DNA of 64,000 bases from Candidatus Eiseniibacteriota bacterium (lineage in GTDB: Bacteria; ARS69), in the NCBI GenBank assembly GCA_052390515.1, contig JBQTGV010000044.1, positions 15,619-79,618 on the forward strand. Direction: 5' to 3'. Of this stretch, positions 2,876-33,713 are shown in pieces. A program made the translations under genes and the position numbers. Under the pieces are notes generated by a model that worked only from the letters and a program-made list of their open reading frames with translations, made no database searches and was not told where the DNA came from. Numbering within the stretch: position 1 is the first letter of the stretch; each line of letters opens with the position of its first letter.

Positions 2876-5761
2876 ATGAGCGATGATCGCTGGATCCGCC
2901 TGCGCGCTCTCTTCGACGAGATCCAGGAGCTACCCGAGGCGGAGCGCACGTCGTTCCTCGACCGCGAGCTCACCGGGGAGCCCGAGCTCCGCGCGGAGCT
3001 CGCCGTGCTTCTGGCCGACGTGGGATCCACCGCCCGCTTCCTCGCCGAGCCGAGCGACGCGGCCGCCGGCTCGATGGTCGGACCCTATCGGCTTGTCGAG
3101 CGTCTCGGCGAGGGCGGCTTCGGCGTCGTGTACCTGGCCGAGCAAGAGCGGCCGCTCCGTCGCCGCGTGGCGCTCAAACTGATCAAGCCCGGGATGGACT
3201 CCAAGCAGGTGGTGGCCCGCTTCGACGCGGAGCGGCAGGCGCTCGCTCTGATGGATCATCCGGGAATCGCCCAGGTCTTCGACGCCGGCGAGACCGAGAC
3301 GGGGCACCCCTACTTCGCAATGGAGTACGTGCCCGGACTCCCCATCACGAAGTACTGCGACGAGCACCGCCTCGCCGTGCGAGAGCGGCTGGCGCTGCTG
3401 GTCGAAGTGTGCGACGCCGTACAGCACGCGCACCAGAAGGGAGTGATCCACCGCGACATCAAGCCCTCCAACGTGGTGGTCGCCCGCCGCGAAGGCGCCG
3501 CCGCGCCCAAGGTGATCGACTTCGGCATCGCCAAGGCCACGACCAGCCTCGGGTCCGGCGACACGGTGATGACCCACGCGGGCATGATCGTCGGCACGCT
3601 CGACTACATGAGTCCGGAACAGGCCGGCGCGACCGCCGCCGCGATGGACACGCGCTCGGACATCTATTCCCTCGGCGTCCTGCTCTACGAGCTGCTGATC
3701 GGAGAGCTGCCGTTCGACAGCGGGCGCCTTCGGGAGGGCGCGCTCTCCGATGTTCTGCGCGTGATCCGAGAGGAGGATCCACCGCCGCTCACCGTCCGTC
3801 TCGCGCGCAGCGGCGAGGTCGTCGCGCGGGTGGCCGAACGGAGATCCACGGATGCTCGCCGCTTGCTGCGCGATCTGAGAGGCGAGCTGGAGTGGATCAC
3901 ACACCGGGCGCTGGAGAAGGATCCGGAGCATCGCTACCCGTCCGCGGCCGAGCTGGCGGCGGACATCCGCCGGTACCTGGCCGACGAGCCGGTCCTCGCC
4001 GGAGCTCCGACGACGGCGTACAAGATCCGGAAGTTCGTGCGGCGTCACCGCGTGGTCGTTACCGCCGCGGCCGTCGTGCTGCTCAGCATCGTCGCGGGCG
4101 GGATCGCCGCCGCGGTCGGGTTCAGCCGCGCGGTGCGCTCCGAGCAGGTCGCGGTGCGCGCCGAGCAGGCCGCGCGGCGGGAGGCGGAGTCGTCGCAGCG
4201 GGTTGCGGACTTCCTCATCGAGCTGTTCGGCGCCCCGAGTCCGGACCGTTCCAAGGGCGAGACGCTCACCGCGCGCATGCTCCTGGACGAGGGCACGCGC
4301 CGCATCGAGAGCGGACTGAAGGCCGACCCTCAGGTCCGCTCGCGTCTGCTGGGTACGATGGGCGCGTCGTACCTCAATCTCGCGGCGTTCGACGAAGGTG
4401 TACGTCTCCATCGGGAGGCGCTCGCGGCCGCGGAGGCCGCGGAGCCGCCGGACGCCACGGGGATCGGGCGTTCTCTCTTGGGGCTGGCGGTCGGTTTCAA
4501 CATGTCTGGGCAGCAGGACAGTATCCCCGCCGTCATCGATCGGGCGATCTCGCTGCTGGGAGGCACCGAGGGAGCGGACCCGACGCTGCTGGCCCGGTGC
4601 ATCTATCAGAAGGGGCAGTGGTGGAACGCCAAGGGCGACGCTGCGGCCGCGGACTCGTTGGTCTCGGTGGCGCTCCGGATGGAAGAGTCGACTCCTTCGC
4701 CGGAGCCGGCGGTCCTTCTGCCCATGGTCTCCACGAAGGCGAACATCGCGCACCGCCGTTTCGATCTGGATGCCGCGGAGCGTGACTACCTGCGCGTCGT
4801 GCAGCTCGCCGAGGAGGCCGGCCGCCCCTCCTGGGCGGTCTCCGCTCACAGCCGCCTGGCGGCGGTCTACGCTTCGCTGCAGGAGTCCGAGAAGGCCCTG
4901 CACCACGCGCAGGCGGGCTTGGATCTCGCCCGTCGGATCTACGCGCCGGATCACCCCAACGTCGCCGATGCACTCAGCGGTCTGGCCGCGGCCCTGACCG
5001 GCCAGGGAAGCCTCGACGAGGCGATCGCCGCCAGGGAGGAGGCGCTCGGGATCTTGAGGAAGCGGGCACTGCCCGAGGCCGTCGCGTACGAGCTCAACAT
5101 CCTCGCGCGGCTCTGCAGCGCCCTGGGGCGGCACGAGCTGGCGGTCGCCCGCGCCGGCGAGGCGTCCGAGCTCCGTCGCGGCACTCACGGGACGGACCAC
5201 ACCCGCACCGCCGAGTCGCTGGCGACGCTGGGGGCGTGCTGCGTCGCCGCGGGACAACCGGAGCAGGCCGACGCGCCGTTCCGCGAGGCCATCGCGATCT
5301 TCGATCGCCTCGGGGACAAGAGCATCTTCCCGCCCGTGACCTGGGTCGAGTATGCGGACCTCTGCCGCGACCGCGGGCTGTTCGAGCGCGCGGAGAGCTT
5401 GTACACGCGCGCCGAGGCGGCCCTGGACTCGACGAACGCGGGCATGAGGCAGCACGTCGGAGTCTGTCTGGCCGGACACGGCGAGCTCAGGTCGCTGCAG
5501 GGCCGTCACGACGAGGCGGAGTCCATGATGCGCAGCGGATACCCGCTGATACGCGGCGAGACGTCCGACGACGATGCGATCCTCGGTGACGTGCATCTGT
5601 CGTGGGCCGTCGTGCGGATGCGCGCGGGCAATGCCGAGGGGGCGCTCGAAGAGCTGCGCCGCGCGGCCGCCTGCGGGGTGACCTCCGAGGACGTCGCGGG
5701 TCATCCGGAGCTCGCCGCACTCCGTTCGCGGGTCGACTACCCGCGGGACAGCTTCCCGTAG
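2876..5761 (+). CDS. Ser/Thr protein kinase with a conserved N-terminal extension, one TM helix and a C-terminal TPR sensor domain (module 1)
   Basis: Hanks kinase motifs are present: GEGGFGVVY, VALK, HRDIKPSN, DFG, GTLDYMSPEQ. A TM segment VVVTAAAVVLLSIVAGGIAAAVGF follows. The C-terminal half has TPR-like repeats. There are four paralogs in the window. Confidence 0.85.
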   Translation: MSDDRWIRLRALFDEIQELPEAERTSFLDRELTGEPELRAELAVLLADVGSTARFLAEPSDAAAGSMVGPYRLVERLGEGGFGVVYLAEQERPLRRRVALKLIKPGMDSKQVVARFDAERQALALMDHPGIAQVFDAGETETGHPYFAMEYVPGLPITKYCDEHRLAVRERLALLVEVCDAVQHAHQKGVIHRDIKPSNVVVARREGAAAPKVIDFGIAKATTSLGSGDTVMTHAGMIVGTLDYMSPEQAGATAAAMDTRSDIYSLGVLLYELLIGELPFDSGRLREGALSDVLRVIREEDPPPLTVRLARSGEVVARVAERRSTDARRLLRDLRGELEWITHRALEKDPEHRYPSAAELAADIRRYLADEPVLAGAPTTAYKIRKFVRRHRVVVTAAAVVLLSIVAGGIAAAVGFSRAVRSEQVAVRAEQAARREAESSQRVADFLIELFGAPSPDRSKGETLTARMLLDEGTRRIESGLKADPQVRSRLLGTMGASYLNLAAFDEGVRLHREALAAAEAAEPPDATGIGRSLLGLAVGFNMSGQQDSIPAVIDRAISLLGGTEGADPTLLARCIYQKGQWWNAKGDAAAADSLVSVALRMEESTPSPEPAVLLPMVSTKANIAHRRFDLDAAERDYLRVVQLAEEAGRPSWAVSAHSRLAAVYASLQESEKALHHAQAGLDLARRIYAPDHPNVADALSGLAAALTGQGSLDEAIAAREEALGILRKRALPEAVAYELNILARLCSALGRHELAVARAGEASELRRGTHGTDHTRTAESLATLGACCVAAGQPEQADAPFREAIAIFDRLGDKSIFPPVTWVEYADLCRDRGLFERAESLYTRAEAALDSTNAGMRQHVGVCLAGHGELRSLQGRHDEAESMMRSGYPLIRGETSDDDAILGDVHLSWAVVRMRAGNAEGALEELRRAAACGVTSEDVAGHPELAALRSRVDYPRDSFP

Positions 5762-6309
5762 AGCCAGGTCCGGGCGAAGGCCCAATCCCGCATCACCGTG
5801 CGCTTCGAGGACTGCAGAGTCTCGACCACCTCCTCCACGCTCAGCCCTCCATAGAATCGGAGGCGGACGACCTGCGCCGCCCGTTCGTCGCGCTCGGCGA
5901 GCTGCTCGATGGCCCGGTCCAGCGCCAGGATCGTCTCGGGGTCCCCGTCGTCGGCGAGCGCCGCCACCTGGGAGAGGTCCAGGGAGACCTTGTGCGGCGG
6001 TCTCCCTTCGGAATCGCCGCCGCGCTTCGCCCGGCCGCGGGCCCGGGCCCGCTCGATCAGGATCCGGCGCATGGCCACGGCCGCCGCGGCGAAGAACTCG
6101 CGGCGGCTTTGCCAGACGCTCCCGTCCCGGGGACCGAGGCGCAAGTAGGCCTCGTGGACCAGCTCGGTGGACTGAATGGTCTGGCCGCTGCGCTCGCCGC
6201 GCATCCGCGCGTGTGCCAGGGCGCGAAGCTCCTGGTAGACCTCGGCGAAGAAGGCGTCGGAGCCGGCCGGACCGGCGGCATCCGGCTCCTCGGGGGGCTG
6301 GCTGGCCAT
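5737..6309 (-). CDS. ECF sigma factor, kinase-associated type (ECF43/TIGR02999-like)
   Basis: Sigma-70 region 2 and 4 motifs are present (ELVHEAYLRL; LRFYGGLSVEEVAETL). The C-terminal tail is 'DWAFARTWLYGKLSRG'. It converges on the kinase gene with a 25-nt 3' overlap. There are five paralogs. Confidence 0.85.
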   Translation of the reverse strand: MASQPPEEPDAAGPAGSDAFFAEVYQELRALAHARMRGERSGQTIQSTELVHEAYLRLGPRDGSVWQSRREFFAAAAVAMRRILIERARARGRAKRGGDSEGRPPHKVSLDLSQVAALADDGDPETILALDRAIEQLAERDERAAQVVRLRFYGGLSVEEVVETLQSSKRTVMRDWAFARTWLYGKLSRG

Positions 6310-6366
6310 CGCCCGATGGTAGGCGCCGCCGGTCCGCGGCTCAACGGGCAGTTTCCGGTCCGCCGC

Positions 6367-6395
6367 GTGGCACCGTCCCGGCAGTTCCGGCGCAC
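6367..6395 (+). promoter_or_regulatory. Candidate ECF-type promoter GTGGCAC-N17-CGCAC upstream of peptide gene 1
   Basis: This is copy 1 of 7 of the bipartite motif TGTCAC(C)-N17-CGCA(T), with an exact 17-nt spacer in every copy. It lies 63 nt upstream of the peptide ATG. Confidence 0.55.
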
Positions 6396-6458
6396 TGGGG
6401 GGCGGCCGTCTCCCGAGGAGACGGCGGCGGACATCAACCTTCCTTCGGAGGCAACGAC

Positions 6459-6542
6459 ATGATCACCCTCTTCGCGCTCGTCCTGGAACTCGTCGCTGGC
6501 AGGATCGCGGCCAACCACAATCAATCCGGGCTGGCCGGCTGA
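6459..6542 (+). CDS. Small conserved peptide (27 aa) MITLFALVLELVAGRIAANHNQSGLAG; peptide family member 1
   Basis: GGAGG lies 8 nt upstream of the ATG. It is one of six paralogs sharing the LFxLxL(D/E)hhAGRhAANHNQ core. It is divergent from the sigma gene. Confidence 0.6.
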   Translation: MITLFALVLELVAGRIAANHNQSGLAG

Positions 6543-6614
6543 TCCGTGCCTCCGGCGGGCACCCGGGTCTTGCGGTCGCGGGCCTCGATGGAAGCGGCCG
6601 CAACCCCGGGGGCG

Positions 6615-9497
6615 TCACCGCGTCGCCACCGGCCCGAGGTAGCGGTCCAGCCAGTCGAGGGTCTCGCGCACCACGTCGGGCCACGGCGGCACGTGGCCGC
6701 TGTCCAGGACCACGTGGCGCTTGTTCGCCGCCGGCGTTCCCAGCATGCGGAACAGCGGCTGCTGGTTGGTCTCGAACGGCGAGGCGAAATCGTAGCGGCC
6801 GTTGATCATCAGGACCGGGACGCGCACGCGCGGGGCGTAGTTGAACCCGTGCACCTCTTCCGGCGCCGACTCGTCCAGCCCTGCGGCGACGAGCACCAGG
6901 GTGCGCAGCCGGGGCTCCACCGCACCGACGATCGTTCCCTCTTCCGCGCCCATGCTGAGGCCATAGAACGCGATTCGCGTGCGGTCGATGTCGCTCCGAC
7001 TCTCGAGGTAGTCGATTCCGCGTCGCACGTCCAACGCGCGCTGCGTGACCACCTCGCGGAGGAAGCTGGGTCCAACGGCGTCCCGCTTGCGCCGGTGGTA
7101 GGTCTGCTGATAGGCGGGGAACAGGACCGCCCGCCCGCTCCGGACCAGGAATCCGAAATCGCGCTGACCCACTTGGTCGATCGATAAGAGCCACCGGGCA
7201 CTCCCTGGAGGAAAGTAGACGACGGTCTGGTAGGGGGGCGCCGCGTTCTTGGGCAGGAGCAGCCACGCCGGGATGCGCTCGTCGCCATAAGCCGCGGTGA
7301 AGCTGACCTTCTCGGCGCGCCAGAGCGGGGACCGGTCGTCCACCGAGTCCACCTGCGCGCCCAGCTCACCGCGGTCGTAGTCGAACATCCGCCGGTAGAT
7401 CTCGAAGATCCGATCGTCCACCGGTTGCAGACTCGAGAAGTCTCGCACCGGATCCTGGATCTCGCCGAAGCACTCATCGGAAGGGGGCTGCTCGTAAACG
7501 GCGCAGCGCAGGCCCAGGATCGGACCCCGGTCCATGGGATCGAGCGCGTCCGGCCCCGTATACAAGTACGTCGGATCGCTCCAGGCTCCGCCCAGCGTGT
7601 AGCGCCGGTCCCCGTCGGCGTTCCAGGCCCACTCGCGCACGTTGCCGGCCATGTCGTAGTTCCCGAACGCGGTGAGGCTGGGTTGGGCCTCGACGGGGCG
7701 CGGACCCTGGTCGCCGAAATTGCTGAAGCGTAGCAGGTCGGAGAAGATCGACAGGTCGGCCGCGCGGTACCAGTGATGGACGGTCGGCAGGCTCTTGCCG
7801 GCGAACTCGGCGTAGGCCGCCGCTTCGTACCAGCTCACACCGGACACCGGATGGTCTGCGTGCTCCGCGGGAAAGCTGCCCAGCTCCCAGGTCGAAGGCC
7901 CGGGCCGGCCGGTCCGGTCGCGGAACCGCGACATCGCCTCCTCGAAGGACAGAGACTCTCCGTGACTGGCGAAGGGGTGCTTCCACAGCTCGCGGCGTCG
8001 ATACCCGCCGGCGTTCACGAACGCCGCGAACTCTCGGTTGGTGACCTCGTGGCGGTCGAGCCAGTAGTCGCCGAGCACGACCGGTGGTGCCCCCCGGAAC
8101 TGGAAGGAACCTCCGGGAACGCGCACCATGTCGGCGGGTGCCGCGGCGACCGGGGTCAGGCGTACCGGAGCCTGCAGGGCCAGTCTCGACGGAGAGAAGG
8201 CCAACTCCACCGGTGCAAAGCCCGACTTCGCGAGATGGAAGCGCAACAGTGCGAACGGCAACTGCACGCCCTCGAGGGGCGTCATCCCCAGCTCTCTCCA
8301 CGCCGCGTCGGGCTCCGAGTACGGCTTGAAGGAGACCTGCGCACCGGCGGGCTCGCTGAGTAGGGTCAAAGGCGCGATCGTGATGTCGAGCCACGCCCTC
8401 TCGAAGACCGGATCGCCAGCCAGCAGGGGCTGTGCCTTCTCGGCCAGCCGGAATGCGCCGAGGCGGTCGTCCGCCTCGATCAGACGCTGGATCTCGGGCA
8501 GTGCCTCGCGCCTGGCCCAGCGTTCCTGCGCGCCCCGGTGCCACGTCCACACACCGAGCGCGGCGAGCGAGATCACCAGCAGCGCAAGGAGGGTGAGCCC
8601 CGCTGGACTGCGCAGACGTCTCGCCCACGCGGGCAGCCGGTCGGGCGTGGCGCAAGCCTCGAGGTCCGCGAGAAGCGCCACCGCCGAGGCGTAGCGCTCC
8701 GCCGGATCCTTCGCGAGACAGCGGGTCACGATCGCCTCGAGGCGTGGATCTATCTCGGGCCTCGCGCGCCGCAATGGTGTCGGCGCGGCGTTCAGGATCG
8801 CAGCCAGCAGAGCGACACCAGTGTCCCCCTCGAACGGCCGTCGGCCCGCGATCATCTCGTGGAGCGTCACTCCGAACGAAAAGACATCCGAGCGCGCGTC
8901 GACCGTGCGGCCGGTGGCTTGCTCGGGAGACATGTAGGCGGGGGTCCCGACGATCGTGTGCTCTGCGGTCGTGAGCGGGACGCTGATCGTGCTGGTCGTC
9001 GACTCCGTCCCGGGCTCGACGGACGGCGGGCGGCGGGCGAGTCCGAAGTCGAGCACCTTCACCACACCGCTGCGCGTGATCATCACGTTGGCGGGCTTGA
9101 GGTCGCGATGCACCACGCCGGCCGCGTGGGCCGCCGCCAGGCCGCGGGCCACGTCCACCGCGATCCGCAGCGCCTCGGCGAGGGGCAGCGGTCCGCGCGC
9201 GACGCGCTCGCGCAGACTCTCCCCGTCGAGACATTCCATCGCGATCCAGGTGCCGCGGCTGTCGTCTTCGCCAACGTCGTAGACCGTGACGATGTTGGGA
9301 TGGTTGAGCGACGAAAGGGTTCGCGCCTCCTGCACAAGACGCTGCGTACGCTGGGACTCGGCCACCGCGTCGGGGCGCAGCAGCTTGATGGCCACCGTCC
9401 GGCCCAGGCGCGGGTCGCGGGCACGGTAGAGCACGCCCATGCCGCCCTCACCGAGCTTGTCGGTGATCTCGAAACGACCGACGGTCTCTCCGAGCAT
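6615..9497 (-). CDS. Multidomain Ser/Thr kinase - TM - FGE-sulfatase (SUMF1-like) domain - alpha/beta-hydrolase (S9/DLH-like) domain
   Basis: N-terminal kinase motifs are present (GEGGMGVLY, HRDLKPAN, DFG, GTPAYMSPEQ), followed by a TM helix LLALLVISLAALGVW. The middle region is FGE-like (HEVTNREFAAFV...GGAWSDP). The C-terminal region is an alpha/beta hydrolase (GLSMGAEEG nucleophile elbow; ...DSGHVPP). Confidence 0.8.
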   Translation of the reverse strand: MLGETVGRFEITDKLGEGGMGVLYRARDPRLGRTVAIKLLRPDAVAESQRTQRLVQEARTLSSLNHPNIVTVYDVGEDDSRGTWIAMECLDGESLRERVARGPLPLAEALRIAVDVARGLAAAHAAGVVHRDLKPANVMITRSGVVKVLDFGLARRPPSVEPGTESTTSTISVPLTTAEHTIVGTPAYMSPEQATGRTVDARSDVFSFGVTLHEMIAGRRPFEGDTGVALLAAILNAAPTPLRRARPEIDPRLEAIVTRCLAKDPAERYASAVALLADLEACATPDRLPAWARRLRSPAGLTLLALLVISLAALGVWTWHRGAQERWARREALPEIQRLIEADDRLGAFRLAEKAQPLLAGDPVFERAWLDITIAPLTLLSEPAGAQVSFKPYSEPDAAWRELGMTPLEGVQLPFALLRFHLAKSGFAPVELAFSPSRLALQAPVRLTPVAAAPADMVRVPGGSFQFRGAPPVVLGDYWLDRHEVTNREFAAFVNAGGYRRRELWKHPFASHGESLSFEEAMSRFRDRTGRPGPSTWELGSFPAEHADHPVSGVSWYEAAAYAEFAGKSLPTVHHWYRAADLSIFSDLLRFSNFGDQGPRPVEAQPSLTAFGNYDMAGNVREWAWNADGDRRYTLGGAWSDPTYLYTGPDALDPMDRGPILGLRCAVYEQPPSDECFGEIQDPVRDFSSLQPVDDRIFEIYRRMFDYDRGELGAQVDSVDDRSPLWRAEKVSFTAAYGDERIPAWLLLPKNAAPPYQTVVYFPPGSARWLLSIDQVGQRDFGFLVRSGRAVLFPAYQQTYHRRKRDAVGPSFLREVVTQRALDVRRGIDYLESRSDIDRTRIAFYGLSMGAEEGTIVGAVEPRLRTLVLVAAGLDESAPEEVHGFNYAPRVRVPVLMINGRYDFASPFETNQQPLFRMLGTPAANKRHVVLDSGHVPPWPDVVRETLDWLDRYLGPVATR

Positions 9498-9686
9498 CGG
9501 CTGCCTCTCGGTGGTTGAGCCGTCACGCTACGGTGCTCATTCAATCCAGGTCAAGGCTGGGGCGACTCAGTCGCGCGCTCTCGCGAGCGGCGGTGGTGCT
9601 CGCGGCCTAAGCGTGGCGGCGGCCCGGTCGGGCTGGTGTACAATCCGCGCGGTCGCCGCCCCGGCGCCCGTGCCTCGGAGCCGCCC

Positions 9687-25261: not shown

Positions 25262-26473
25262 ATGAATGCGATGCGGAACCGATCGATCCCCCTGTGGCCC
25301 ACGTTCGTTCTGGTCCTGACCGTGAGCTGCGGCGACGACAACCCTGCGGATCCCGGGGATGACCCAGGGCCAGCGGGCGGCCTTCAGCTCGACAACTTTC
25401 AACCAGCCGCGATGGTCATCGGACAGGCCGACAAGGTGTCGGGCACGGCGAATGCGGGTGGCGGCACGACGAACGCATTCGGACTGACGCAGCCCGATGC
25501 AGCCGGGTGCGGAACGCTGTACCTCCCGGACGACCTCAACCACCGCGTTCTGGGTTTCGCGGGGGTGCCGACGACCGATGGCGCCGCCGCCAGCTTCGTG
25601 CTCGGTCAACCGGACTTCACGTCGTCCGCGCAAGGCACCACTGCCGAGAACTTTCGTCACCCGGGCGACTGCGCGGTGGCCGACGGGAAGCTGTTCGTCC
25701 TGGACAGTGGGAACGAGCGAGTCCTGATCTGGAACTCCCTGCCGACGGGTAACGTGCCGGCCGATGTGGTCGTGGGGCAACCCGACTTCACGTCCTCAGC
25801 GCCCGCGACGACCCGGACGGGTCTCGCCGGCCCGTTCCGCGTGGCGGTCGGCGGCGGCCGGATGTTCGTCAGCGACACCGCGAATTCCCGGGTTCTGATC
25901 TGGAACACCATACCCACGGCGAACGGCGCGCCGGCCAGCGTGGTCCTCGGACAGACCGATTTCACGACGTCCGTCCCGGGCCTGACCGCCTCGACGTTCC
26001 GATCTCCGACGGCCCTCTGGACGGACGGCACGCGCCTCGTGGTCGGCGACCTGGGGAATCGCCGCGTTCTGATCTGGAACACGATTCCCACGACGAACGG
26101 TGCTGCGGCGGACGTGGTCGTGGGTGCCCCGGACTTCACGACCGCGGGTTCGAGCACGCCCTCCGCGACGAGCATCGACTTCCCCCTCGGTGTGACCTCC
26201 GACGGCACGAGCCTCTTCGTGGCGGACGTGAACTTCAATCGAGTGCTGATCTTCACGCCGTTCCCGACGGTGAACGGGGCGGCCGCTACGGGCGTGCTCG
26301 GCCAGGACAGCTTCACGAGTTCGGCTCTCAACGACGACGACCAGGACGGAACGCCGGACGGTCAGCCGACTGCGCGGACGTTCTTCGGACCCAGGGACGT
26401 GAGGGTTCTCGGGGACCGCCTGTTCGTCGCGGACGAGCTCAACAACCGGGTGATGGTCTTCGACGGCAAGTAG
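25262..26473 (+). CDS. NHL-repeat (six-bladed beta-propeller) putative lipoprotein
   Basis: The signal peptide ends ...LTVSCGDDNPA. Six repeats carry '(N/S)xRVLIWN(T/S)(I/L)PT.N..A(D/S)VVLGQ.DFTS'. Confidence 0.6.
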   Translation: MNAMRNRSIPLWPTFVLVLTVSCGDDNPADPGDDPGPAGGLQLDNFQPAAMVIGQADKVSGTANAGGGTTNAFGLTQPDAAGCGTLYLPDDLNHRVLGFAGVPTTDGAAASFVLGQPDFTSSAQGTTAENFRHPGDCAVADGKLFVLDSGNERVLIWNSLPTGNVPADVVVGQPDFTSSAPATTRTGLAGPFRVAVGGGRMFVSDTANSRVLIWNTIPTANGAPASVVLGQTDFTTSVPGLTASTFRSPTALWTDGTRLVVGDLGNRRVLIWNTIPTTNGAAADVVVGAPDFTTAGSSTPSATSIDFPLGVTSDGTSLFVADVNFNRVLIFTPFPTVNGAAATGVLGQDSFTSSALNDDDQDGTPDGQPTARTFFGPRDVRVLGDRLFVADELNNRVMVFDGK

Positions 26474-26488: not shown

Positions 26489-29347
26489 ATGAACGGGGAA
26501 CAGTGGCGCCGGCTGAAGGACCTCTTCGTCGACCTCCAGGGAATGCCGGAGGGCGAGCGAAGCGCTCATCTCGACCGGGAGGCCGCCGGTGATCCGGAGG
26601 TGCGCGCCGAGCTCCATCGATTGCTCGCCGTCGACAGATTCGCCGCCGACTTCCTCGCCGCCGCACACTCCGCTTCCAGCCACGGCTCCATCGGACCCTA
26701 CCGGCTCCTCGAGATCCTGGGCGAAGGCGGCTTCGGCGTGGTGTATCTGGCCGAGCAGGAGCGCCCCATCCGCCGCCGCGTCGCGCTCAAGCTGATCAAG
26801 CCGGGGATGGACACGAAGCAGGTGATCGCCCGCTTCGAGGCCGAGCGGCAAGCCCTGGCTCTCATGGACCATCCCGGCATCGCCCAGGTTCACGACGCGG
26901 GCGAAACGGAGGCGGGCCGGCCGTACTTCGTCATGGAGTACGTGCCCGGGGAGCCCATCACCACGTTTTGCGACCGCGAGCGGCTGCGCATCCCCGAACG
27001 GCTCGAGCTCTTCCTCGAGGTCTGCGACGCGATCCAGCACGCCCACCACAAGAGCGTGATCCACCGGGACATCAAACCCTCCAACGTGCTCGTCGCGCTG
27101 CGCGACGGTGTGCCCGCGCCGAAGGTGATCGACTTCGGCATCGTCAAGGCGACCACGGCGGGGGCGGCCGGTCAAACCCTGATGACGCGCGAGGGGATGA
27201 TCGTCGGGACGCTGGGATACATGAGCCCGGAGCAGGCCGGGGCGGCCGAGACGGTGGACACGCGCTCCGACATCTACTCGCTGGGGGCTCTTCTGTACGA
27301 GCTGCTGGCGGGCTCACCGCCCTTCGACGCCGACCGGCTGAAGAGCGCCGCGCTCTCGGATGCCGTGCGCGTCGTCCGGGAAGAAGAGCCGCCGGCGCTC
27401 GCTGCGCGGGTGGCGCGAGGCGGGGAGGAGGAAGCGGCGGTGGTCGCCGAGCGGCGCTCCGCGGATGCCCGGCACCTTCTCCGCGAGCTGAAGGGCGAGC
27501 TGCAGTGGATCACGCTGCGCGCGCTGGAGAAGGACCCGAGCCGGCGTTACACGTCGGCGGCGGAGCTGGCGGCCGACATCCGCCGGCACCTCGCGAACGA
27601 GCCCGTGCTGGCCGTTGCTCCGAGCACGGCCTACCGGATGCGCAAGTTCGCCCGGAGGCACCGGGTCGGCGTCGTCGCTGCGACCGTCGTGCTGGCCACG
27701 ATCGTGGTCGGGGGAATCGCCGCGGGAATCGGCTTCGGCCGGGCGGTTCGTGCCGAGCACAAGGCACAACGCGAAGCGGAATCCCTACAGCGCGTCACCG
27801 ACTTTCTGGTCGAGTTGTTTCGCACGTCGAGCCCGGATCAATCCCGCGGAGAGACCATCACCGCGCGGACCCTCCTCGACGAGGGCACACGTCGCATCGA
27901 GGCCGACCTCGAGGCGGACGCGCACATCCGTGCGCGCCTGCTGGCGACGCTGGGCGACGCACATGTGAACCTGGCGCTCTACGATGACGGCCTTCGCCTG
28001 CTGCGCGAAGCGGTGGCGACGAGCGAAGCTGCGGAACCGCGCGACGACCTGGAGATCGCCGAGCAGCTTCGCCGATTGGCCTACGGCCTCAGAATGGCGG
28101 GACAGCTCGACAGCGTCGGGGTCCTCCTCGATCGCGCGATGGAGCTCGGACGCGACGCTGGGGCGCGCTCTCGCTGGATGGCGGGGTGCCTGTCGAACAA
28201 GGCTTCCTGGCTGAACAGCCTGGGCCAGCTCGCGCCGGCAGATTCGCTCGTGACGCTGGCGATCGAGATGGGTGAGTCCGAGCCGGAGCCGGATCGCCCT
28301 CAGCTCATGCGCATGTACTACACGAAGGGAAACATCGCCCACCGTCGGTTCGAGCTGCCGGATGCCGAGCGTCACTACCTCCGGGCGCTGGAGCTTTGCG
28401 AAAGCGGGGGAACCGAACCGACCTGGTCGGCGATGCTCCATCGCAGCCTGGCGTCCCTCTACGCCGCCCTCGGCGATCCGGAGAGGGCGGTGAGTCATGC
28501 GGAGCAGGGCGTGCGTCTCGCCCGGCGGCTCTATGCCTCCGACCATCCCAACCTCGCCTACGCGCTGGGCGGCCACGCGGCGGCCCTGGCCGGCAAAGGA
28601 GATTACTCGGGGGCGCTCGCTGTGCGGGAGGAGGCGCTGGGCATTTGGCGTGCGACCGGGGCGCAGACCGACCTCGCCCGCGAGCTGAACAGCGTAGGAA
28701 TCCTGCACCGGGCTGCCGGTCAACTCGATCTCGCTATCGCCTGCACGGAAGAAGCGTGCGCGCTGTACCGCGCGTCATTCGGTCAGGAAAGCGGCCGAAC
28801 CGCGGAGGCGGTCGCCAACCTGGCGCGGCTGTATGCGGAGAAGGGGCAGCTCCATCGCGCCGACTCGACGTACCGCGCAGCCGTTCCCGTGTTCGATCGG
28901 CTGCGCGACGGAAGCATCTTCGCCACCTATGCCTCCATGGGCTTCGCCAACGTGTGTCGGGATCTCGGGCGCTCGGCTCAGGCCGAGAGCCTCTATTCGC
29001 GGGTGGAGTCCGCGCTGGACTCCACCGAGGCGGGCCTGCGGGGCTATTTCGGCGAGTGCCTGGTGGATCACGCTTACCTGCGGTCGCGGCAGGGGAGGCA
29101 CGACGAGGCGGAGTCCATGATGCGGATCGGGCTCCCCATGCAACGCGGCGACGCCGCCGAGGATGCTCGAAGTCTGGGTGCCGCGTACCTCACGTGGGCA
29201 GCGGCGCGCGCGCTGGCCGGGGACGCCGCCGGCGCCATCGAGAAGCTCCAGCAGGCCGCCCGCTGCGGCGTGACGGTGCAGGACGCCGCCCGATATCCCG
29301 AGCTCGCCGCGCTCCCGGCCGACTACCCCCTGGAGAGCTCTCCGTAG
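26489..29347 (+). CDS. Ser/Thr protein kinase with TM and TPR domain (paralog 4)
   Basis: It has the conserved N-terminal extension, the kinase motifs, a TM helix and TPR repeats. It starts 16 nt after the NHL gene stop. Confidence 0.85.
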   Translation: MNGEQWRRLKDLFVDLQGMPEGERSAHLDREAAGDPEVRAELHRLLAVDRFAADFLAAAHSASSHGSIGPYRLLEILGEGGFGVVYLAEQERPIRRRVALKLIKPGMDTKQVIARFEAERQALALMDHPGIAQVHDAGETEAGRPYFVMEYVPGEPITTFCDRERLRIPERLELFLEVCDAIQHAHHKSVIHRDIKPSNVLVALRDGVPAPKVIDFGIVKATTAGAAGQTLMTREGMIVGTLGYMSPEQAGAAETVDTRSDIYSLGALLYELLAGSPPFDADRLKSAALSDAVRVVREEEPPALAARVARGGEEEAAVVAERRSADARHLLRELKGELQWITLRALEKDPSRRYTSAAELAADIRRHLANEPVLAVAPSTAYRMRKFARRHRVGVVAATVVLATIVVGGIAAGIGFGRAVRAEHKAQREAESLQRVTDFLVELFRTSSPDQSRGETITARTLLDEGTRRIEADLEADAHIRARLLATLGDAHVNLALYDDGLRLLREAVATSEAAEPRDDLEIAEQLRRLAYGLRMAGQLDSVGVLLDRAMELGRDAGARSRWMAGCLSNKASWLNSLGQLAPADSLVTLAIEMGESEPEPDRPQLMRMYYTKGNIAHRRFELPDAERHYLRALELCESGGTEPTWSAMLHRSLASLYAALGDPERAVSHAEQGVRLARRLYASDHPNLAYALGGHAAALAGKGDYSGALAVREEALGIWRATGAQTDLARELNSVGILHRAAGQLDLAIACTEEACALYRASFGQESGRTAEAVANLARLYAEKGQLHRADSTYRAAVPVFDRLRDGSIFATYASMGFANVCRDLGRSAQAESLYSRVESALDSTEAGLRGYFGECLVDHAYLRSRQGRHDEAESMMRIGLPMQRGDAAEDARSLGAAYLTWAAARALAGDAAGAIEKLQQAARCGVTVQDAARYPELAALPADYPLESSP

Positions 29348-29895
29348 AGCCAGGTCCTGGCGAAGGCCCAATCCCGGAGCACGGTACGCTTCGACGCTTC
29401 CAGCGTCTCCGCCACCTCCTCGACGCTCAGGCCCGCGTAGAAGCGCAGCCGAACGATCTGCGCCGCCCGCTCGTCCTGCACCGCCAGCCGCTCGATGGCA
29501 CGGTCCAGGGCGAGGATCGTCTCCGGGTCCCTGTCGTCGGCGATCGCGGCGACCTCCTCGAGGTCGAGCGACACCTTGGGCGCCGGTCGGCCCTCGGAAT
29601 CGCCGCCGCGCTTGACTCGCCGCCGGGCGCGGGCCCGGTCGATGAGGATCCGCCGCATGGCCTCGGCCGCCGCGGCGAAGAACTCCGCGCGGCCCTGCCA
29701 ATCGCCTGCCCCCTCGGGGCGAAGGCGCAGGTAGGCCTCGTGCACGAGCTCGGTGGTCTGGAGGCTCTGGCCCGCGTTCTCGCCCCGCATCCGCGCGTGC
29801 GCGATCGTGCGGAGCTCGTCGTAGACGCGGGCGAAGAACGCGTCGGAACCGGCCGGGCCGGGCTCGTCGGGTTGGGCAGGGGGCTCGGTGGACAT
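29323..29895 (-). CDS. ECF sigma factor, kinase-associated type (paralog 4)
   Basis: It has the same motifs as the other sigma paralogs. It has a 25-nt convergent overlap with kinase 4 and is divergent from kinase 5. Confidence 0.85.
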   Translation of the reverse strand: MSTEPPAQPDEPGPAGSDAFFARVYDELRTIAHARMRGENAGQSLQTTELVHEAYLRLRPEGAGDWQGRAEFFAAAAEAMRRILIDRARARRRVKRGGDSEGRPAPKVSLDLEEVAAIADDRDPETILALDRAIERLAVQDERAAQIVRLRFYAGLSVEEVAETLEASKRTVLRDWAFARTWLYGELSRG

Positions 29896-30079
29896 GCAGG
29901 GCGATGGTAAGGGGACGCCGTCCCGAGCTCAACCCGCCGGTTCCCAACCCACGGTGGCCGCCCCCGGCCGTCCACCGCTTCGCTGCCGCCGGACTCCGGC
30001 CTGGACGTACTTCGCCCGGCTCCGGACGGCCACGTCGGTCCGCCAAGCCCATCCGGCTGCGGTCGGCTAAACTGCGCCG

Positions 30080-32944
30080 ATGAACCGGGAGCAGTGGAGC
30101 CGACTCCGGGACCTCTACGCCGAGGCCGACGAGATGCCGGAGGGCGAGCGTCGCGCCTTCCTGGACCGTGAGGCGCGGGACGACCCCGAGCTCCGCGCCG
30201 AGCTGGACCGGCTCTTCGCCGCCGGCGCGGCCGCGACGACCTTCTTCGCACCATCCCCATCCGACGCCGGGCAGGGCTCGATCGGGCCGTACCGTCTCCT
30301 CCGCATCCTCGGCGAGGGCGGCTTCGGTGTCGTGTACCTCGCCGAGCAGGAGCGGCCCATCCGGCGCCGCGTGGCGCTCAAGCTGATCAAGCCGGGCATG
30401 GACACGAGGCAGGTGATCGCCCGCTTCCAGGCGGAGCGTCAGGCGCTCGCGGTGATGGACCACCCCGGCATCGCGCAGGTGCACGACGCCGGCGAGACGG
30501 AGACGGGCCGTCCCTACTTCGTCATGGAGTACGTGCCCGGCGCTCCGGTCACGGCGTTCTGCGACCGCGAGCGGCTGAGCGTACGCCAGCGGCTGGAGCT
30601 CTTCCTGCACATTTGTGACGCCATTCAGCACGCGCACCAGAAGGGAGTCATCCACCGGGACATCAAGCCGTCCAACGTGCTCGTCGCACTGCGGGACGGC
30701 GTGGCGGCACCGAAGGTGATCGACTTCGGCATCGTCAAGGCGACGACGGAGTTCGCAGCGGCGGGCACCCTGATGACCCGCGAGGGCATGATCGTCGGGA
30801 CGCTGGGGTACATGAGCCCGGAGCAGGCCGGGTCGTCGGAGAGCGTGGACACGCGCTCGGACATCTACTCGCTGGGGGTGCTGCTCTACGAGCTGCTGAC
30901 CGGCGCGCTGCCATTCGACGCGGAGCGGCTGCGCCAGGCGGCGCTGTCGGACGCCGTGCGGGTCATCCGCGAGGAGGAGCCGCCCGCCCTGGCCGCGAGA
31001 CTGTCCCGGAGTCGCGAGGCGTCCGCTGCCGCGGCCGAGCGGCGCTCGACCGACGTGCGCCGGCTCCTGCGCGACCTGAAGGGCGAGCTCTCCTGGATTA
31101 CGCTGCGCGCGACCGAGAAGGACCCGAACCGGCGCTACGCGTCGGCCGCGGAGCTGGCGGCGGACGTCCGGCGGCACCTCGACAACGAGCCCGTGCTCGC
31201 CGGCGCGCCGAGCACCATGTACAGACTGCGCAAGTACGCGCGGCGGCACCGCGCCGGCGTGATCGCCGCGGTGGTCGTGCTGGCCTCCATCGTGGCCGGC
31301 GGCGTCGCCGCGGGAATCGGTTTCCGCCGAGCGGTGCTGGCCGAGCAGGACGCGCGCCGCGAGGCGGAGTCGTCGAAGCGCGTCTCCGATTTCCTGGTGG
31401 AGCTGTTCCGCGCATCCAGCCCGGACGTGTCACAAGGCGAAGTGCTCACCGCGCGCATGCTCCTGGACGAGGGCACGCGCCGGATCGAGAGCGCGCTCGA
31501 GGAGGACCCGCTGGTGCGCGCTCGGGTCCTCGACGCGATGGGGGCGTCGTACGTGAACCTGGGCCACTTCGAGGAGGGGATCCGCGTCCGGCGCGAGGCG
31601 GTGACCGCCGCCGAGTCGGTCGAGCCGCGGGACGACGTGGAGGTCTCCAAACGGCTCGTCGGTCTCGCTCTGGCGCTGACCATGGGCGGCCAGCGCAACG
31701 ACGCGCGCCCGCTTCTCGAGCGGGCGAACGCGCTCTGCCAGGCCTCGGCGGACGCCGAACCGGATGTGCGCGCGGCGTGCCTCCAGCAGTTGGGACAGTG
31801 GTGGAACGAAGAGGGCGAGACCACCAAGGCAGACTCCCTGCTCACGCAGGCGCTCGAGATCGCGGAGTCCGCGGCCGAACCGAACGCCGTGCGGCTCATG
31901 CGCATCTGTTCGAGCAAGGCGAACATCGCTCACCGCCGGCTCGACCTGCAGGAGGCGGAGCGGCACTACCGGAGGGTGCTGGCCCTCGCGCGGGAGACGG
32001 AGACCCCTTCCGCCGCCATCAGCGCCCATCGCGGTCTGGCGTCGATGTTCGCAACGCTCGACGAGCCGGACAGCGCGCTGGCGCACGCCGAGGAGGGCGT
32101 CCGCCTCGCGCGGCAGATCTACGCGCCCGACAATCCCCAGCTCGCGACTGCGCTCGGCGGTCAGGCGAACGCGCTCACCGCCCGCGGTCGGTACCCCGAG
32201 GCGATCGCCGTCCTGGAAGAGGCGCTGGCCATCCTGCGGACTAAGGGGGCGCCGGAGCTTGCGGCCGGCGCGGCAAACCTGGCCGGCTCCGTCTACTTGG
32301 CGGACGGCCAGGTCGACTCCGCGATCGCCCGCACCGAAGAAGCCCATCGGATCTTCGTCGGGCAGAAGGGTCCGGAGAACGCCCGCGTGGCGGAGGTCGT
32401 GGCCAACCTGGGGCGCTGCTACGCCGCAGCGGGGCAGACCCAGCGGGCCGACGCGTCCTTCCGCGATGCCATCGCCGTGTTCGACCGAGTCGGGGACGAG
32501 ACCATCCTCCCGCCGCTGGCATGGATGAGCTACGCGAACCTCTGCCGCGACGACGGGCGGATGGAGCGGGCGGATTCGTTGTACGCGCGCGCGGCTGCCG
32601 CCCTGGACTCGACGAACGCCGGGATGCGGTCGTACGCCTGGGAGTGCCTGATGGACTGGGGCCGCCTGCGGTCTCTTCAAGACAGGCACGACGAGGCGGA
32701 GGCGCTGCTGCGGGGGAGCTACTCCATCAGGCGGAGCAGCGCGGAGGGCGACACCGATCCCTCCCTGGGCGGTGTGTACCTCGTGTGGGCGGCGGCCCGA
32801 TCGCGCGCCGGGGATGTCGAAGGCGCCGTCGAGAAGCTCCGCCTGGCCGCGGCGAGTGAGGTGGACCCGAGGGACGTCGAGGGCTTCCCGGAGCTCGCCG
32901 CCCTCCGGGACCATCCGGAGTACCCGTTCCGAGGAACTCGCTGA
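30080..32944 (+). CDS. Ser/Thr protein kinase with TM and TPR domain (paralog 5)
   Basis: It has the conserved N-terminal extension, the kinase motifs, a TM helix and TPR repeats. Confidence 0.85.
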   Translation: MNREQWSRLRDLYAEADEMPEGERRAFLDREARDDPELRAELDRLFAAGAAATTFFAPSPSDAGQGSIGPYRLLRILGEGGFGVVYLAEQERPIRRRVALKLIKPGMDTRQVIARFQAERQALAVMDHPGIAQVHDAGETETGRPYFVMEYVPGAPVTAFCDRERLSVRQRLELFLHICDAIQHAHQKGVIHRDIKPSNVLVALRDGVAAPKVIDFGIVKATTEFAAAGTLMTREGMIVGTLGYMSPEQAGSSESVDTRSDIYSLGVLLYELLTGALPFDAERLRQAALSDAVRVIREEEPPALAARLSRSREASAAAAERRSTDVRRLLRDLKGELSWITLRATEKDPNRRYASAAELAADVRRHLDNEPVLAGAPSTMYRLRKYARRHRAGVIAAVVVLASIVAGGVAAGIGFRRAVLAEQDARREAESSKRVSDFLVELFRASSPDVSQGEVLTARMLLDEGTRRIESALEEDPLVRARVLDAMGASYVNLGHFEEGIRVRREAVTAAESVEPRDDVEVSKRLVGLALALTMGGQRNDARPLLERANALCQASADAEPDVRAACLQQLGQWWNEEGETTKADSLLTQALEIAESAAEPNAVRLMRICSSKANIAHRRLDLQEAERHYRRVLALARETETPSAAISAHRGLASMFATLDEPDSALAHAEEGVRLARQIYAPDNPQLATALGGQANALTARGRYPEAIAVLEEALAILRTKGAPELAAGAANLAGSVYLADGQVDSAIARTEEAHRIFVGQKGPENARVAEVVANLGRCYAAAGQTQRADASFRDAIAVFDRVGDETILPPLAWMSYANLCRDDGRMERADSLYARAAAALDSTNAGMRSYAWECLMDWGRLRSLQDRHDEAEALLRGSYSIRRSSAEGDTDPSLGGVYLVWAAARSRAGDVEGAVEKLRLAAASEVDPRDVEGFPELAALRDHPEYPFRGTR

Positions 32945-32955
32945 GGCACGCGAGA

Positions 32956-33537
32956 CTAGGCGCCGTCCCCGGAGAGCTCTCCGTAGAGCCACGCCCGGGC
33001 GAAGGCCCAGTCGCGGAGGACGGTCCGGGTCGACGCGCCCATCGCCTCGGCCACCTCCTCGACGGAGAGCCCTCCGTAGAAGCGCAGCCGCACCACCTTC
33101 GCCGCGCGCTCGTCCTTCTCCGCCAGGCGCTCGATGGCGCGGTCGACGGCCAGGATGGTCTCCGGATCGCCGTCGTCGGCGAGCGCGGCCACCTCTTCCA
33201 GGTTGAGCGAGACCCTCGGCGGGGGCCGGCCTTCCGCGTCGCCGCCGCGCTTCATCCGCCCCTTCGCGCGGGCCCGCTCGATCAGGATCCGGCGCATGGC
33301 CTCGGCGGCGGCGGAGAAGAAGTGGCCGCGGTTGTCCCAGCGGCCGCCGCCCGGCGGGCGAAGGCGCAGGTAGGCCTCGTGCACCAGCTCGGTGGATTGG
33401 AGGGTCTGCCCGGTGCGTTCGCCCTGCATCCGGGCGTGCGCGATGGCCCGGAGCTCGTCGTAGACCTGGGCGAAGAACGTGTCCGAGCCCTTCGGGCCGG
33501 GTCCGGGGGGGTCGGGGGCGGGCCGTTCCTCGGTCAT
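32956..33537 (-). CDS. ECF sigma factor, kinase-associated type (paralog 5)
   Basis: The sequence MTEERPAPD...ELVHEAYLRL...DWAFARAWLYGELSGDGA is present. It is convergent with kinase 5 without overlap. Confidence 0.8.
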   Translation of the reverse strand: MTEERPAPDPPGPGPKGSDTFFAQVYDELRAIAHARMQGERTGQTLQSTELVHEAYLRLRPPGGGRWDNRGHFFSAAAEAMRRILIERARAKGRMKRGGDAEGRPPPRVSLNLEEVAALADDGDPETILAVDRAIERLAEKDERAAKVVRLRFYGGLSVEEVAEAMGASTRTVLRDWAFARAWLYGELSGDGA

Positions 33538-33625
33538 GGAGCCGATGCTAACGGGCCTCCCGGAGTGTCTCAACCGGCTTCTCGAAAGCCGCCGTCCTCC
33601 GCGTCCGCCCTGCCCTTCCGGCCCG

Positions 33626-33653
33626 CTGTCACCCTCCGCCCGCCTCCGTCGCA
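33626..33653 (+). promoter_or_regulatory. TGTCAC-N17-CGCAT candidate ECF-type promoter (copy 5)
   Basis: The conserved motif lies 60 nt upstream of peptide 5. Confidence 0.55.
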
Positions 33654-33713
33654 TGCAGCCGCGACCGTCACCGTGCAGGCGGCGGACGAACCAATCACCC
33701 GGAGGGGAAGGCC

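Follow-up and report, generated by a model that had tools for sequence, protein, structure and literature searches.

A 64,000-nucleotide stretch from Candidatus Eiseniibacteriota, an uncultured bacterium of soil type (contig JBQTGV010000044.1, positions 15,619 to 79,618; called the window here) carries, between 2.0 and 35.2 kb, an array of five intact genes for extracytoplasmic function (ECF) sigma factors, S1 to S5, all on the minus strand, and five long genes for Ser/Thr kinases, K1 to K5, all on the plus strand. The array is probably a tandem set of PknS/EcfK-type (ECF43-like) modules, in which each sigma factor would be switched on by phosphorylation. As far as can be judged from sequence, most of the locus represents a multicopy, rearranged instance of a known, phosphorylation-controlled ECF43-type system. 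Two features go beyond the literature searched, namely, the convergent, overlapping sigma-kinase gene pair and, more important, a promoter motif followed by a gene for a small peptide with an NHNQ core, found in at least two phyla. Window genes were distinguished from overlapping open reading frames (ORFs) by codon-position G+C content, the G+C content being approximately 70% throughout the 64 kb. The ten genes are the following, with TPR standing for tetratricopeptide repeat.

K1, 2876-5761, plus strand: PknS-type Ser/Thr kinase with an N-terminal extension, a kinase domain, a transmembrane helix, and an extracytoplasmic TPR domain
S1, 5737-6309, minus strand: TIGR02999 ECF sigma factor, converging on K1 with a 25-nucleotide (nt) 3' overlap
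K2, 9687-12551, plus strand: PknS-type kinase, converging sigma partner destroyed
S2, 15266-15835, minus strand: TIGR02999 ECF sigma factor without a converging kinase gene, divergent from K3
K3, 16287-19151, plus strand: PknS-type kinase, downstream of the small ORF sORF2
S3, 19127-19699, minus strand: ECF sigma factor, 25-nt 3' overlap with K3
K4, 26489-29347, plus strand: PknS-type kinase, starting 15 nt past an NHL gene
S4, 29323-29895, minus strand: ECF sigma factor, 25-nt overlap with K4, divergent from K5, without a small ORF upstream
K5, 30080-32944, plus strand: PknS-type kinase
S5, 32956-33537, minus strand: ECF sigma factor, converging on K5 with an 11-nt gap

A first-pass annotation had described the locus as five ECF sigma and five TPR kinase paralogs within approximately 31 kb, which is borne out by PF07638 and TIGR02999 matches for the former, Pkinase and TPR matches for the latter, and alignment of the paralogs from end to end. 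Amino acid identities of 67 to 78% among the sigma factors and 58 to 64% among the kinases make a chance origin impossible. The kinases, previously put at about 960 to 990 amino acids, measure 952 to 961 amino acids with conserved starts; lengths of 991 to 994 amino acids result from upstream in-frame GTG codons. The description of the locus as unusually compact was assessed against six related 20-kb loci retrieved via sigma homologs, each of which holds one intact sigma gene and one or two kinase genes. Five or six modules in 31 kb are atypical within this small sample. Beyond the five modules, the array contains a decayed sigma gene as well as a sixth kinase gene (Kx) that is unrelated. The simplest reading is that there were originally six modules, one sigma gene and one kinase gene having been lost to insertions.

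All five sigma factors match PF07638 (E values of 1e-45 to 2e-49; 156 to 168 bits, with a cut-off of 21.1) and exceed the TIGR02999 cut-off of 126.15 with 175.7 to 186.3 bits, in line with their earlier assignment to the ECF43/TIGR02999 type. One of the two sigma signatures named in the first pass, ELVHEAYLRL, is exact in all five proteins; the other, DWAFARAWLYGELS, is exact in S5 alone and off by one or two positions in the rest. At the place of the DxxD patch, region 2.2 of S1 to S5 reads LQ[S/T]TELVHEAY, with an invariant Thr followed by Glu. This Q-[S/T]-T-E motif agrees with the ECF43 features of a missing DAED/DxxD patch and a conserved Thr (consensus, QTTA), with the fourth position staying acidic, as is the case for EcfK (QATE) and 15.8% of the ECF43 members. 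The adjacency to kinase genes typical of ECF43 is also seen, since four sigma genes converge on a kinase gene and S2 is divergent from K3. The linker sequence GGD[S/A]EG is conserved as well. A search of the PDB with S4 returned nothing at an E value of ≤1e-3. In sequence databases, S4 has more than 7,800 relatives at an E value of <1e-20, many of them 70 to 85% identical. Many of these relatives are closer than the window paralogs are to each other, indicating that the duplications are old rather than recent.

The identical kinase architecture reported in the first pass recurs in K1 to K5. In Pfam, each matches Pkinase together with TPR_12/TPR_10/TPR_MalT, and each keeps the GxGxFGxV, VALK, HRDIKPxN, DFG, and SPE motifs intact. 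A single hydrophobic helix at approximately residues 391 to 413 is immediately preceded by RKFxRRHR, which, by the positive-inside rule, would place the kinase domain inside and the TPR ectodomain of approximately 530 amino acids outside. The N-terminal extension follows the pattern W..L..LF....L....R.AFLD.....D..LR.EV..LL. It is present in K1 to K5 and in 15 further sigma-adjacent kinases, among them those of Planctomycetota, Acidobacteriota, and Gemmatimonadota loci, whatever their sensor, and thus in every sigma-adjacent kinase retrieved, including those with beta-propeller sensors; Kx lacks it. A profile of its approximately 58 N-terminal residues, built from 17 sigma-adjacent kinases, matches residues 8 to 55 of PDB entry 9EED, PknS(1-364) of Xanthomonas citri, at an E value of 9e-10, with no other PDB match. 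Likewise, the best PDB match of K4 residues 1 to 400 is 9EED (206 bits, aligned over residues 5 to 368), with PknB at 168 bits. In an AlphaFold model of K4 residues 1 to 400, the extension alone is confident and forms three helices (residues 3 to 17, 21 to 31, and 36 to 57; predicted local distance difference test [pLDDT], 68 to 82), in agreement with what was reported for PknS.

Since the kinases are PknS homologs and the sigma factors carry Q[S/T]TE, the locus is best filed as a putative PknS/EcfK-like (ECF43-like) system of a known kind. In X. citri, PknS phosphorylates T51 within region 2.2 of the ECF43 sigma factor EcfK as well as residues of the linker, the sites including T51 and T106 (PMC13147305). 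The two systems share the kinase plan (a helical N-terminal extension of approximately 80 amino acids, a Hanks kinase, one transmembrane segment, and a periplasmic TPR domain), with homology throughout the cytoplasmic part, the extension included, as well as the Q-x-T-E sigma motif with its retained Glu and the lack of an encoded anti-sigma factor. They differ in that PknS has three TPR repeats, in contrast to the approximately 530-amino-acid ectodomain here, and in that X. citri has one pair controlling a type VI secretion system, whereas the window has five pairs with an apparent output of NHNQ peptides and secreted beta-propellers. The PknT/EcfP pair of Vibrio parahaemolyticus likewise comprises an ECF sigma factor without the acidic DAED patch, activated through phosphorylation of a region 2.2 Thr by an adjacent membrane Hanks kinase. 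There, phosphorylation of Thr63, the equivalent of EcfK T51, makes up for the lack of the acidic patch through which contact with the beta' subunit is made (PMC8999054). However, the EcfP motif, STTA, has no acidic residue, while the window sigma factors keep the Glu and may not be fully inactive when unphosphorylated; moreover, the EcfP regulon concerns polymyxin resistance.

The candidate output of the modules was defined by a conserved motif, TGTCAC-N17-CGCAT. With a position weight matrix (PWM) of this motif, the 64 kb yield seven sites at scores of ≥19.8, every one of them on the plus strand and within the array; two of these, starting at 22532 and 33844, lay outside the first training set. 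Base-shuffled versions of the window with mononucleotide content kept gave 0 to 2 matches scoring ≥12. Every motif (7/7) lies 31 to 67 nt upstream of a GGAGG ribosome-binding site and the ATG of a small ORF, and in several places secreted or lipoprotein genes follow. This supports and sharpens the earlier proposal that target operons are interspersed in the array. The elements are listed below, together with the genes behind them.

6368-6395, plus strand: promoter motif TGGCAC-N17-CGCAC, divergent from S1; PWM score, 26.2
6459-6542, plus strand: sORF1, MITLFALVLELVAGRIAANHNQSGLAG, with GGAGG upstream
13483-14002, plus strand: promoter motif (13483-13510; PWM score, 30.3) and a decayed small ORF (ATG at 13578) running into an NHL-like fragment
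15892-15919, plus strand: promoter motif upstream of sORF2 and K3; PWM score, 33.5
15951-16034, plus strand: sORF2, preceding K3
19760-19787, plus strand: promoter motif upstream of sORF3
19845-19925, plus strand: sORF3
19929-22430, plus strand: secreted DUF5122 beta-propeller with FlgD_ig and a type IX secretion system (T9SS) C-terminal sorting domain, starting 3 nt past the sORF3 stop
22532-22559, plus strand: promoter motif upstream of sORF4; PWM score, 21.6
22613-22696, plus strand: sORF4
22709-25216, plus strand: second DUF5122/FlgD_ig beta-propeller gene, 13 nt or less after sORF4
25262-26473, plus strand: NHL-repeat lipoprotein gene, with K4 directly after it in the same direction
33627-33654, plus strand: promoter motif upstream of sORF5
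33714-33797, plus strand: sORF5, followed by a hairpin at 33811-33839
33844-33871, plus strand: promoter motif upstream of sORF6
33903-33995, plus strand: sORF6, an NHGQT variant detected with a hidden Markov model and not by eye
33995-35209, plus strand: NHL-repeat lipoprotein gene, its ATG overlapping the sORF6 stop codon

Six of the seven small ORFs are intact and one is decayed; they encode 26 to 30 amino acids, start with ATG behind GGAGG, and share the core AG[RK]xxxNHNQT within the consensus M-I-T-L-F-A-L-V-L-[DE]-L-V-A-G-[RK]-[IL]-A-A-N-H-N-Q-T. Differences between copies are mostly synonymous (pN/pS, the ratio of nonsynonymous to synonymous differences, 0.31 to 0.36), indicating that the ORF is protein coding. 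Residues 1 to 18 are hydrophobic, with a mean Kyte-Doolittle value of approximately 2.0 in five of the six copies, and contain a conserved Asp/Glu10 and Arg/Lys15. The peptides had no Pfam or NCBIfam match at an E value of ≤1, and there was no Rfam match in the region or in the whole 64-kb window. Two interpretations were rejected: a Sec signal peptide, as there is no N-terminal positive charge, and an N-glycosylation sequon, as NQN, NQP, and HGQ variants exist. K4 starts only 15 nt past the NHL gene and so probably closes the sORF4 operon. Of the two beta-propeller proteins, the one encoded at 19929-22430 scores 38 bits against TIGR04183 (type A T9SS sorting; cut-off, 23), and that at 22709-25216 scores 22, just under the cut-off.

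Applied to related metagenome-assembled genomes (MAGs), the matrix derived from the window alone finds the motif before small ORFs (loci L001 and L015), before genes for FG-GAP/SBBP/FlgD_ig secreted proteins (twice in L012, and in L017 and L020), and before kinase genes (L011 and L015). Distant loci gave no match scoring ≥14, save one weak match in L005 (14.1); this and a match within a G6PD gene (L020, 3245-3272; score, 16.3) were treated as false positives. On the basis of this co-localization, we take TGTCAC-N17-CGCAT as the candidate cognate promoter of this sigma clade. No promoter of EcfK is given in PMC6653060.

The sigma genes themselves are preceded by a different, sigma-70-like element, TTGAG(C/A)-N17-TA(C/G)(C/G)AT, on the minus strand at 6313-6352, 15839-15880, 19707-19735, 29899-29940, and 33545-33573. 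It ends 6 to 9 nt before each sigma ATG, which implies leaderless sigma mRNAs. The elements of S3 (TTGAGA-17-TAGGAT) and S5 (TTGAGA-17-TAGCAT), each 7 nt before the ATG, were both picked by an independent sigma-70 scan. The divergent TGTCAC/TGTCAT hexamer and the -35 hexamer of the sigma promoter are reverse complements of each other in L011 and L015. K3 and K5 have TACACT or TAAACT 6 to 7 nt before their ATG. No intrinsic terminator scored above the shuffled background; the hairpin between sORF5 and the next promoter (33811-33839, plus strand) is a GC-only, 13-bp structure of -34 kcal/mol (z score, -3.6) with no T-tract.

The sigma and kinase genes are arranged in an unusual manner. K1/S1, K3/S3, and K4/S4 converge with their 3' ends overlapping by exactly 25 nt, and K5 and S5 lie 11 nt apart. 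The same 25-nt convergent overlap occurs in related MAG loci (L011, L017 to L019, and L020), and the pair in L001 is convergent too. In distant loci from Planctomycetota, Phycisphaerae, Chloracidobacterium, and Gemmatimonadaceae, and in L015, sigma and kinase genes are co-directional. Co-directional TIGR02999 pairs of Planctomycetota, Acidobacteriota, and Gemmatimonadaceae (L002 to L006, L010, L021, and L025) share the sigma family and the kinase extension, and their sigma factors carry QTTA, QTSA, or QPTA; pairs of the window clade, in contrast, converge with the 25-nt overlap. The overlap has three consequences. First, it renders the sigma gene monocistronic and leaves no room for an anti-sigma gene. 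Together with the lack of an anti-sigma domain in any scanned neighbor gene, this upholds the earlier statement that these sigma factors have no anti-sigma partner. Second, it indicates that the kinase/sigma pair was duplicated and inherited as a unit. Third, each transcript must run antisense into the partner gene, which may have a regulatory effect.

One module has decayed. Between K2 and S2, the following features replace the missing sigma and kinase genes.

12527-13292, minus strand: two small ORFs of 163 and 96 amino acids at the place of K2's sigma gene, the 163-amino-acid ORF overlapping the K2 3' end by 25 nt
13269-13409, minus strand: sigma remnant with its N terminus joined directly to the linker (..SDAFIAQVYDGLRAVAQPKLSLDVAEVA..), internally deleted and missing sigma-4; found by tblastn with S4 (E value, 5e-6)
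14102-15285, minus strand: HTH_3/DUF6922 gene and AbiEii nucleotidyltransferase gene, where S2's converging kinase is expected

The opposite strand of the last S2 codons still reads a kinase-type tail, PYPPESSR*. Neither of the two small ORFs matched Pfam or PADLOC, nor did the 163-amino-acid ORF match NCBIfam. The gap between K2 and S2 is thus filled by two pairs resembling toxin-antitoxin systems, the 163- and 96-amino-acid ORFs and HTH_3/DUF6922 with AbiEii. In L012, a 49-amino-acid sigma remnant (19730-19879; ..ILIERARAKGRGNRSGDLEALNAWTRTVLRDWAFARAWLYGELARG) converges on a kinase gene and shows an internal deletion like that of the window remnant. The like deletions in the two remnants suggest recurrent decay of sigma genes.

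The paralogs have not diverged evenly. Among K1 to K5, identity is 78% in the kinase domain, 62% in the transmembrane region, 51% in the ectodomain, and 47% in the N-terminal extension. In S1 to S5, identity is 39% over the first 16 residues and 77 to 84% in region 2.2, the linker, and the sigma-4 recognition helix. The seven promoters are near-identical. Diverged sensors and extensions, combined with a near-identical kinase core, DNA-binding helices, and promoters, point to many inputs and one output. Most likely, therefore, the array represents several sensors feeding one promoter type rather than five insulated channels, though the pairs may still differ subtly in specificity. The co-diversification of sigma and kinase pairs, which the first pass had suggested examining, left no signal or none that can be resolved: the mirror-tree distances are star-like, and nine pairs gave an r of 0.02 (Mantel p = 0.5). 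Of the 120 pairings within the window, the positional one comes 6th, a rank due solely to S4 and K4, which are closest to all others.

Taken together, these data suggest the following scheme. Each Hanks kinase would sense something outside the cytoplasmic membrane with its TPR domain and engage its sigma factor through the three-helix N-terminal extension. Phosphorylation of the invariant Thr of Q-[S/T]-T-E, and perhaps of the GGD[S/A]EG linker, would then supply the charge needed for binding the RNA polymerase core, by analogy with EcfP and EcfK. The activated sigma factor would transcribe from the TGTCAC-N17-CGCAT promoters located back to back with the sigma genes. Its proximal regulon would comprise an NHNQ peptide gene at every promoter and, at some, secreted or lipoprotein beta-propellers (DUF5122 or NHL, with a FlgD_ig/T9SS tail). 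As K3 and K4 are situated at such promoters, positive feedback could result. The sigma genes appear to be expressed constitutively from the sigma-70-like promoters, giving leaderless mRNAs, and kinase transcription running antisense into the sigma gene could provide negative feedback.

Several observations weigh against this phospho-switch scheme. The Glu that follows the Thr (QxTE) implies that core binding may not need phosphorylation, and the linker Ser is replaced by Ala in S5. The T51A variant of X. citri EcfK remains functional (PMC13147305). Three of the kinase genes, K1, K2, and K5, have no TGTCAC-N17-CGCAT promoter, and the link between this motif and the sigma factors is one of co-localization only. 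Outside the extension, the K4 model, computed from the five-paralog alignment, is poor (mean pLDDT, 40), and specificity of the pairs is unsupported by the mirror-tree comparison. As for the role of the small peptide, we rank membership of the regulon first, with a secreted signal and a membrane feedback peptide as live alternatives.

Copies of the small ORF lie beside sigma/kinase pairs in L001 (four copies), L011 (an NHHQ variant), and L015/L016 (two copies). The L001 locus, from a Gemmatimonadales-labeled MAG, packs two kinase genes, one sigma gene, and the four copies, one of them inverted, into 8 kb (6268-14367); a frameshift in one of its kinase genes is probably an assembly error. A pattern scan of metagenomes gave 156 matches, but only one locus, L010, passed confirmation by tblastn, owing to the shortness of the 27-amino-acid query. 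In L010 (61% G+C), small genes, e.g., MKTLKVRSSVRAGGIRQNHNQSSILR, form an array faced by a sigma-kinase operon whose sigma factor carries QPTA. This array includes an 82-amino-acid protein composed of four LRVKAGVKAGG...NHNQT units. The protein has 854 database relatives at an E value of ≤10, all without a Pfam domain and none functionally named, save for one evidently spurious JGI label; a taxon is named for two, both of them Acidobacteriota, including Blastocatellia. The L010 locus also contains a series of three peptide copies with Cys and extra His residues (MKTMKIKSAVRCGGFRHNHNHS...; 1998-2420, plus strand), each with its own ribosome-binding site and an upstream GTGATC-N17-TCACAC.

When 1.84 billion representatives were searched with a profile built from the six window small ORFs alone, 99 matches at an E value of ≤1e-3 were obtained. 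Approximately 20 of these are single-unit peptides of the window type, and the rest are multirepeat proteins matched via AG.xxxNHNQT (E values down to 2e-13), including five already found from L010. Judging by these similarities, the small ORF is a member of an unannotated peptide family that accompanies sigma/kinase systems in at least two phyla. A full-text literature search returned nothing relevant on NHNQ or VKAGG peptides or on Eisenbacteria sigma factors. Of seven Acidobacteriota-type loci found through the peptide alone, four (L010, L021, L022, and L025) have a sigma/kinase pair within 8 kb, consisting of a PF07638 sigma factor and a kinase with the extension. By rough judgment rather than calculation, this association is far above chance expectation.

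Two of these loci also carry exporter genes. L022 reads kinase, sigma, peptide, TPR protein, two peptides, HlyD-like gene, and Peptidase_C39 ATP-binding cassette (ABC) exporter. L025/L026 reads sigma (QTTA), kinase (TPR), two peptides, TPR protein, HlyD-like gene, C39-ABC exporter, and ABC gene. A soluble TPR_10/TPR_12 protein stands beside the peptides in L010, L011, L015, L022, and L025. The window has one as well, directly upstream of K1.

2065-2808, plus strand: gene for a small soluble TPR_10/TPR_12 protein (Pfam TPR_12 E value, 4e-51)

It is 53% identical to the protein encoded at 9108-9815 in L011 and 64% identical to that at 9083-9796 in L015, and is orthologous to the TPR proteins encoded downstream of the small ORF in related loci.

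The NHNQ peptides could accordingly be the signal itself, in an autoinduction loop that runs from the sigma factor to the peptide, to the outside, to the TPR ectodomain, and back to the sigma factor, in the manner of ComC/ComAB/ComDE. TPR domains commonly bind peptides. The one-to-one relation of promoter and small ORF, the retrieval of VKAGG..NHNQT repeat proteins by the small-ORF profile, the four of seven peptide-first loci with a sigma factor and extension kinase, and the exporters of L022 and L025/L026 all fit such a loop, as does the AGG of the repeats, which is double-glycine-like. The AlphaFold model of the repeat protein has no secondary structure (pLDDT, 46). A beta-solenoid fold, also considered for the repeat peptides, is therefore not supported, and the unfolded model is weak evidence that a precursor or signal would fit better than a structural protein. 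The Acidobacterial relatives resemble ComC-ComAB-ComDE circuits in that AGG precursors are paired with an HlyD-like protein, a C39 ABC exporter, and a sensor and regulator, but the latter are a Hanks kinase and an ECF sigma factor here, in contrast to a histidine kinase and response regulator, and the peptides are repeat arrays. In the window, the resemblance reduces to a functional analogy: the small ORFs have AG[RK] and not the GG motif of a double-glycine leader, their N terminus is hydrophobic and not leader-like, and neither an exporter nor a C39 peptidase is encoded in the 64 kb. In L021, where a repeat peptide gene is divergent from a PF07638 sigma gene (QTSA) and a kinase gene, the kinases have beta-propeller rather than TPR sensors, and the peptides of L024 and L029 occur without a sigma/kinase pair. 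On balance, we consider a signaling role of the NHNQ peptides unlikely.

Other details of these loci are as follows. The L021 region at 4238-11236 contains sigma-linked, extension-bearing kinases with Tricorn/PD40/WD40 beta-propeller sensors, which flank the NHNQ peptide gene. L023 has a repeat peptide beside a kinase fragment, and that of L029 lies beside a two-component system. In L024 (8001-10339), where no sigma/kinase pair occurs within 8 kb, the genes for an NHNR repeat peptide and a B12-binding radical S-adenosylmethionine protein are convergent; this context hints that some members of the peptide family are enzymatically modified.

A broader version of the signaling idea is that, in several phyla (Eisenbacteria/Gemmatimonadota-like lineages and Acidobacteriota), ECF43-type pairs act as receptor and regulator of an undescribed family of ribosomal NHNQ(T/S) peptides, the five modules of the window being five channels. 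The sigma factor would transcribe the peptides, a C39-ABC exporter would release them where present, and the ectodomain or the soluble TPR protein would sense them. This we regard as speculative and rather improbable. Low probability also attaches to the possibility that the hydrophobic NHNQ peptide is not exported and instead regulates the kinase by feedback in the membrane, as MgrB does with PhoQ. The hydrophobic residues 1 to 18, the constant position of the peptide gene by a single-pass membrane kinase gene, and its place behind a presumed sigma-dependent promoter are compatible with such a regulator. However, 18 residues with two charges make a poor transmembrane helix, and the Acidobacterial relatives of the peptide are basic and encoded beside exporters.

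The phospho-switch scheme can also be questioned at the level of the kinase, which could tether the sigma factor at the membrane through the extension in an anti-sigma-like manner, with release rather than phosphorylation as the activating event. The extension is indeed the one feature common to all sigma-linked kinases across phyla and is predicted to be a small helical bundle, and the sigma factors keep an acidic residue in region 2.2. Nevertheless, the extension has no anti-sigma match in Pfam or the PDB, where PknS is its sole match, and the catalytic residues are kept in all five paralogs. The studied systems, moreover, require kinase activity and phosphorylation sites (PMC13147305 and PMC8999054). 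We therefore hold a tethering mechanism to be very unlikely. Equally doubtful is that the TGTCAC motif is read by another regulator or sigma factor while the PF07638 sigma factors recognize their own TTGAG-N17-TAxxAT elements: ECF sigma factors do usually autoregulate (PMC7826278), and TTGAG..TAxxAT precedes every sigma gene here as well as in L001, L012, L017, and L020, but the element looks housekeeping and stands only before sigma genes, which would leave the sigma factors without a regulon, whereas the TGTCAC motif accompanies the modules in six loci from related MAGs, with no copy elsewhere in the window or in the distant loci.

If the phospho-switch scheme applies, the array offers a natural experiment on specificity versus cross-talk, with five pairs that are diverged yet alignable: sensor and docking parts are approximately 50% identical, and the catalytic and DNA-binding parts have not drifted. 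To our knowledge, sigma factors activated by Ser/Thr phosphorylation have been demonstrated in a few proteobacterial cases only, each involving one pair whose signal is ill defined. The locus provides a candidate promoter that is sharply defined, along with a minimal regulon, and its tiny peptide gene, which accompanies such systems across phyla, is a candidate for the missing link. Should the peptide prove to be a ligand or feedback element, it would be the first defined input for ECF43 systems, and at least approximately 100 clusters of hypothetical small proteins would gain an annotation (99 at an E value of ≤1e-3, and 854 weaker ones at an E value of ≤10).

The remaining features of the window are the sixth kinase gene, the boundaries of the array, and genes beyond it.

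869-2068: glycosyltransferase gene, left boundary of the array
6615-9497, minus strand: Kx, a sixth Ser/Thr kinase with Pkinase, a transmembrane segment, FGE-sulfatase (EgtB/GldK-like), and an alpha/beta-hydrolase-like tail
35295-38534, minus strand: FeoB gene and a gene for a fusion of an iron-dependent repressor C-terminal domain with FeoA, right boundary of the array
42330-52642: genes for Omp85/POTRA (TamA-like), TamB, a T9SS-tailed protein, and a PD40-Omp85 fusion, concerned with envelope biogenesis and unrelated to the array

Kx shares the strand of S1 and is located upstream of it, with its 3' end pointing toward sORF1; its membership in the system is doubtful. The other window genes are ordinary and include FeoAB, a polysaccharide exporter, TamA/TamB, and UvrD, among others.

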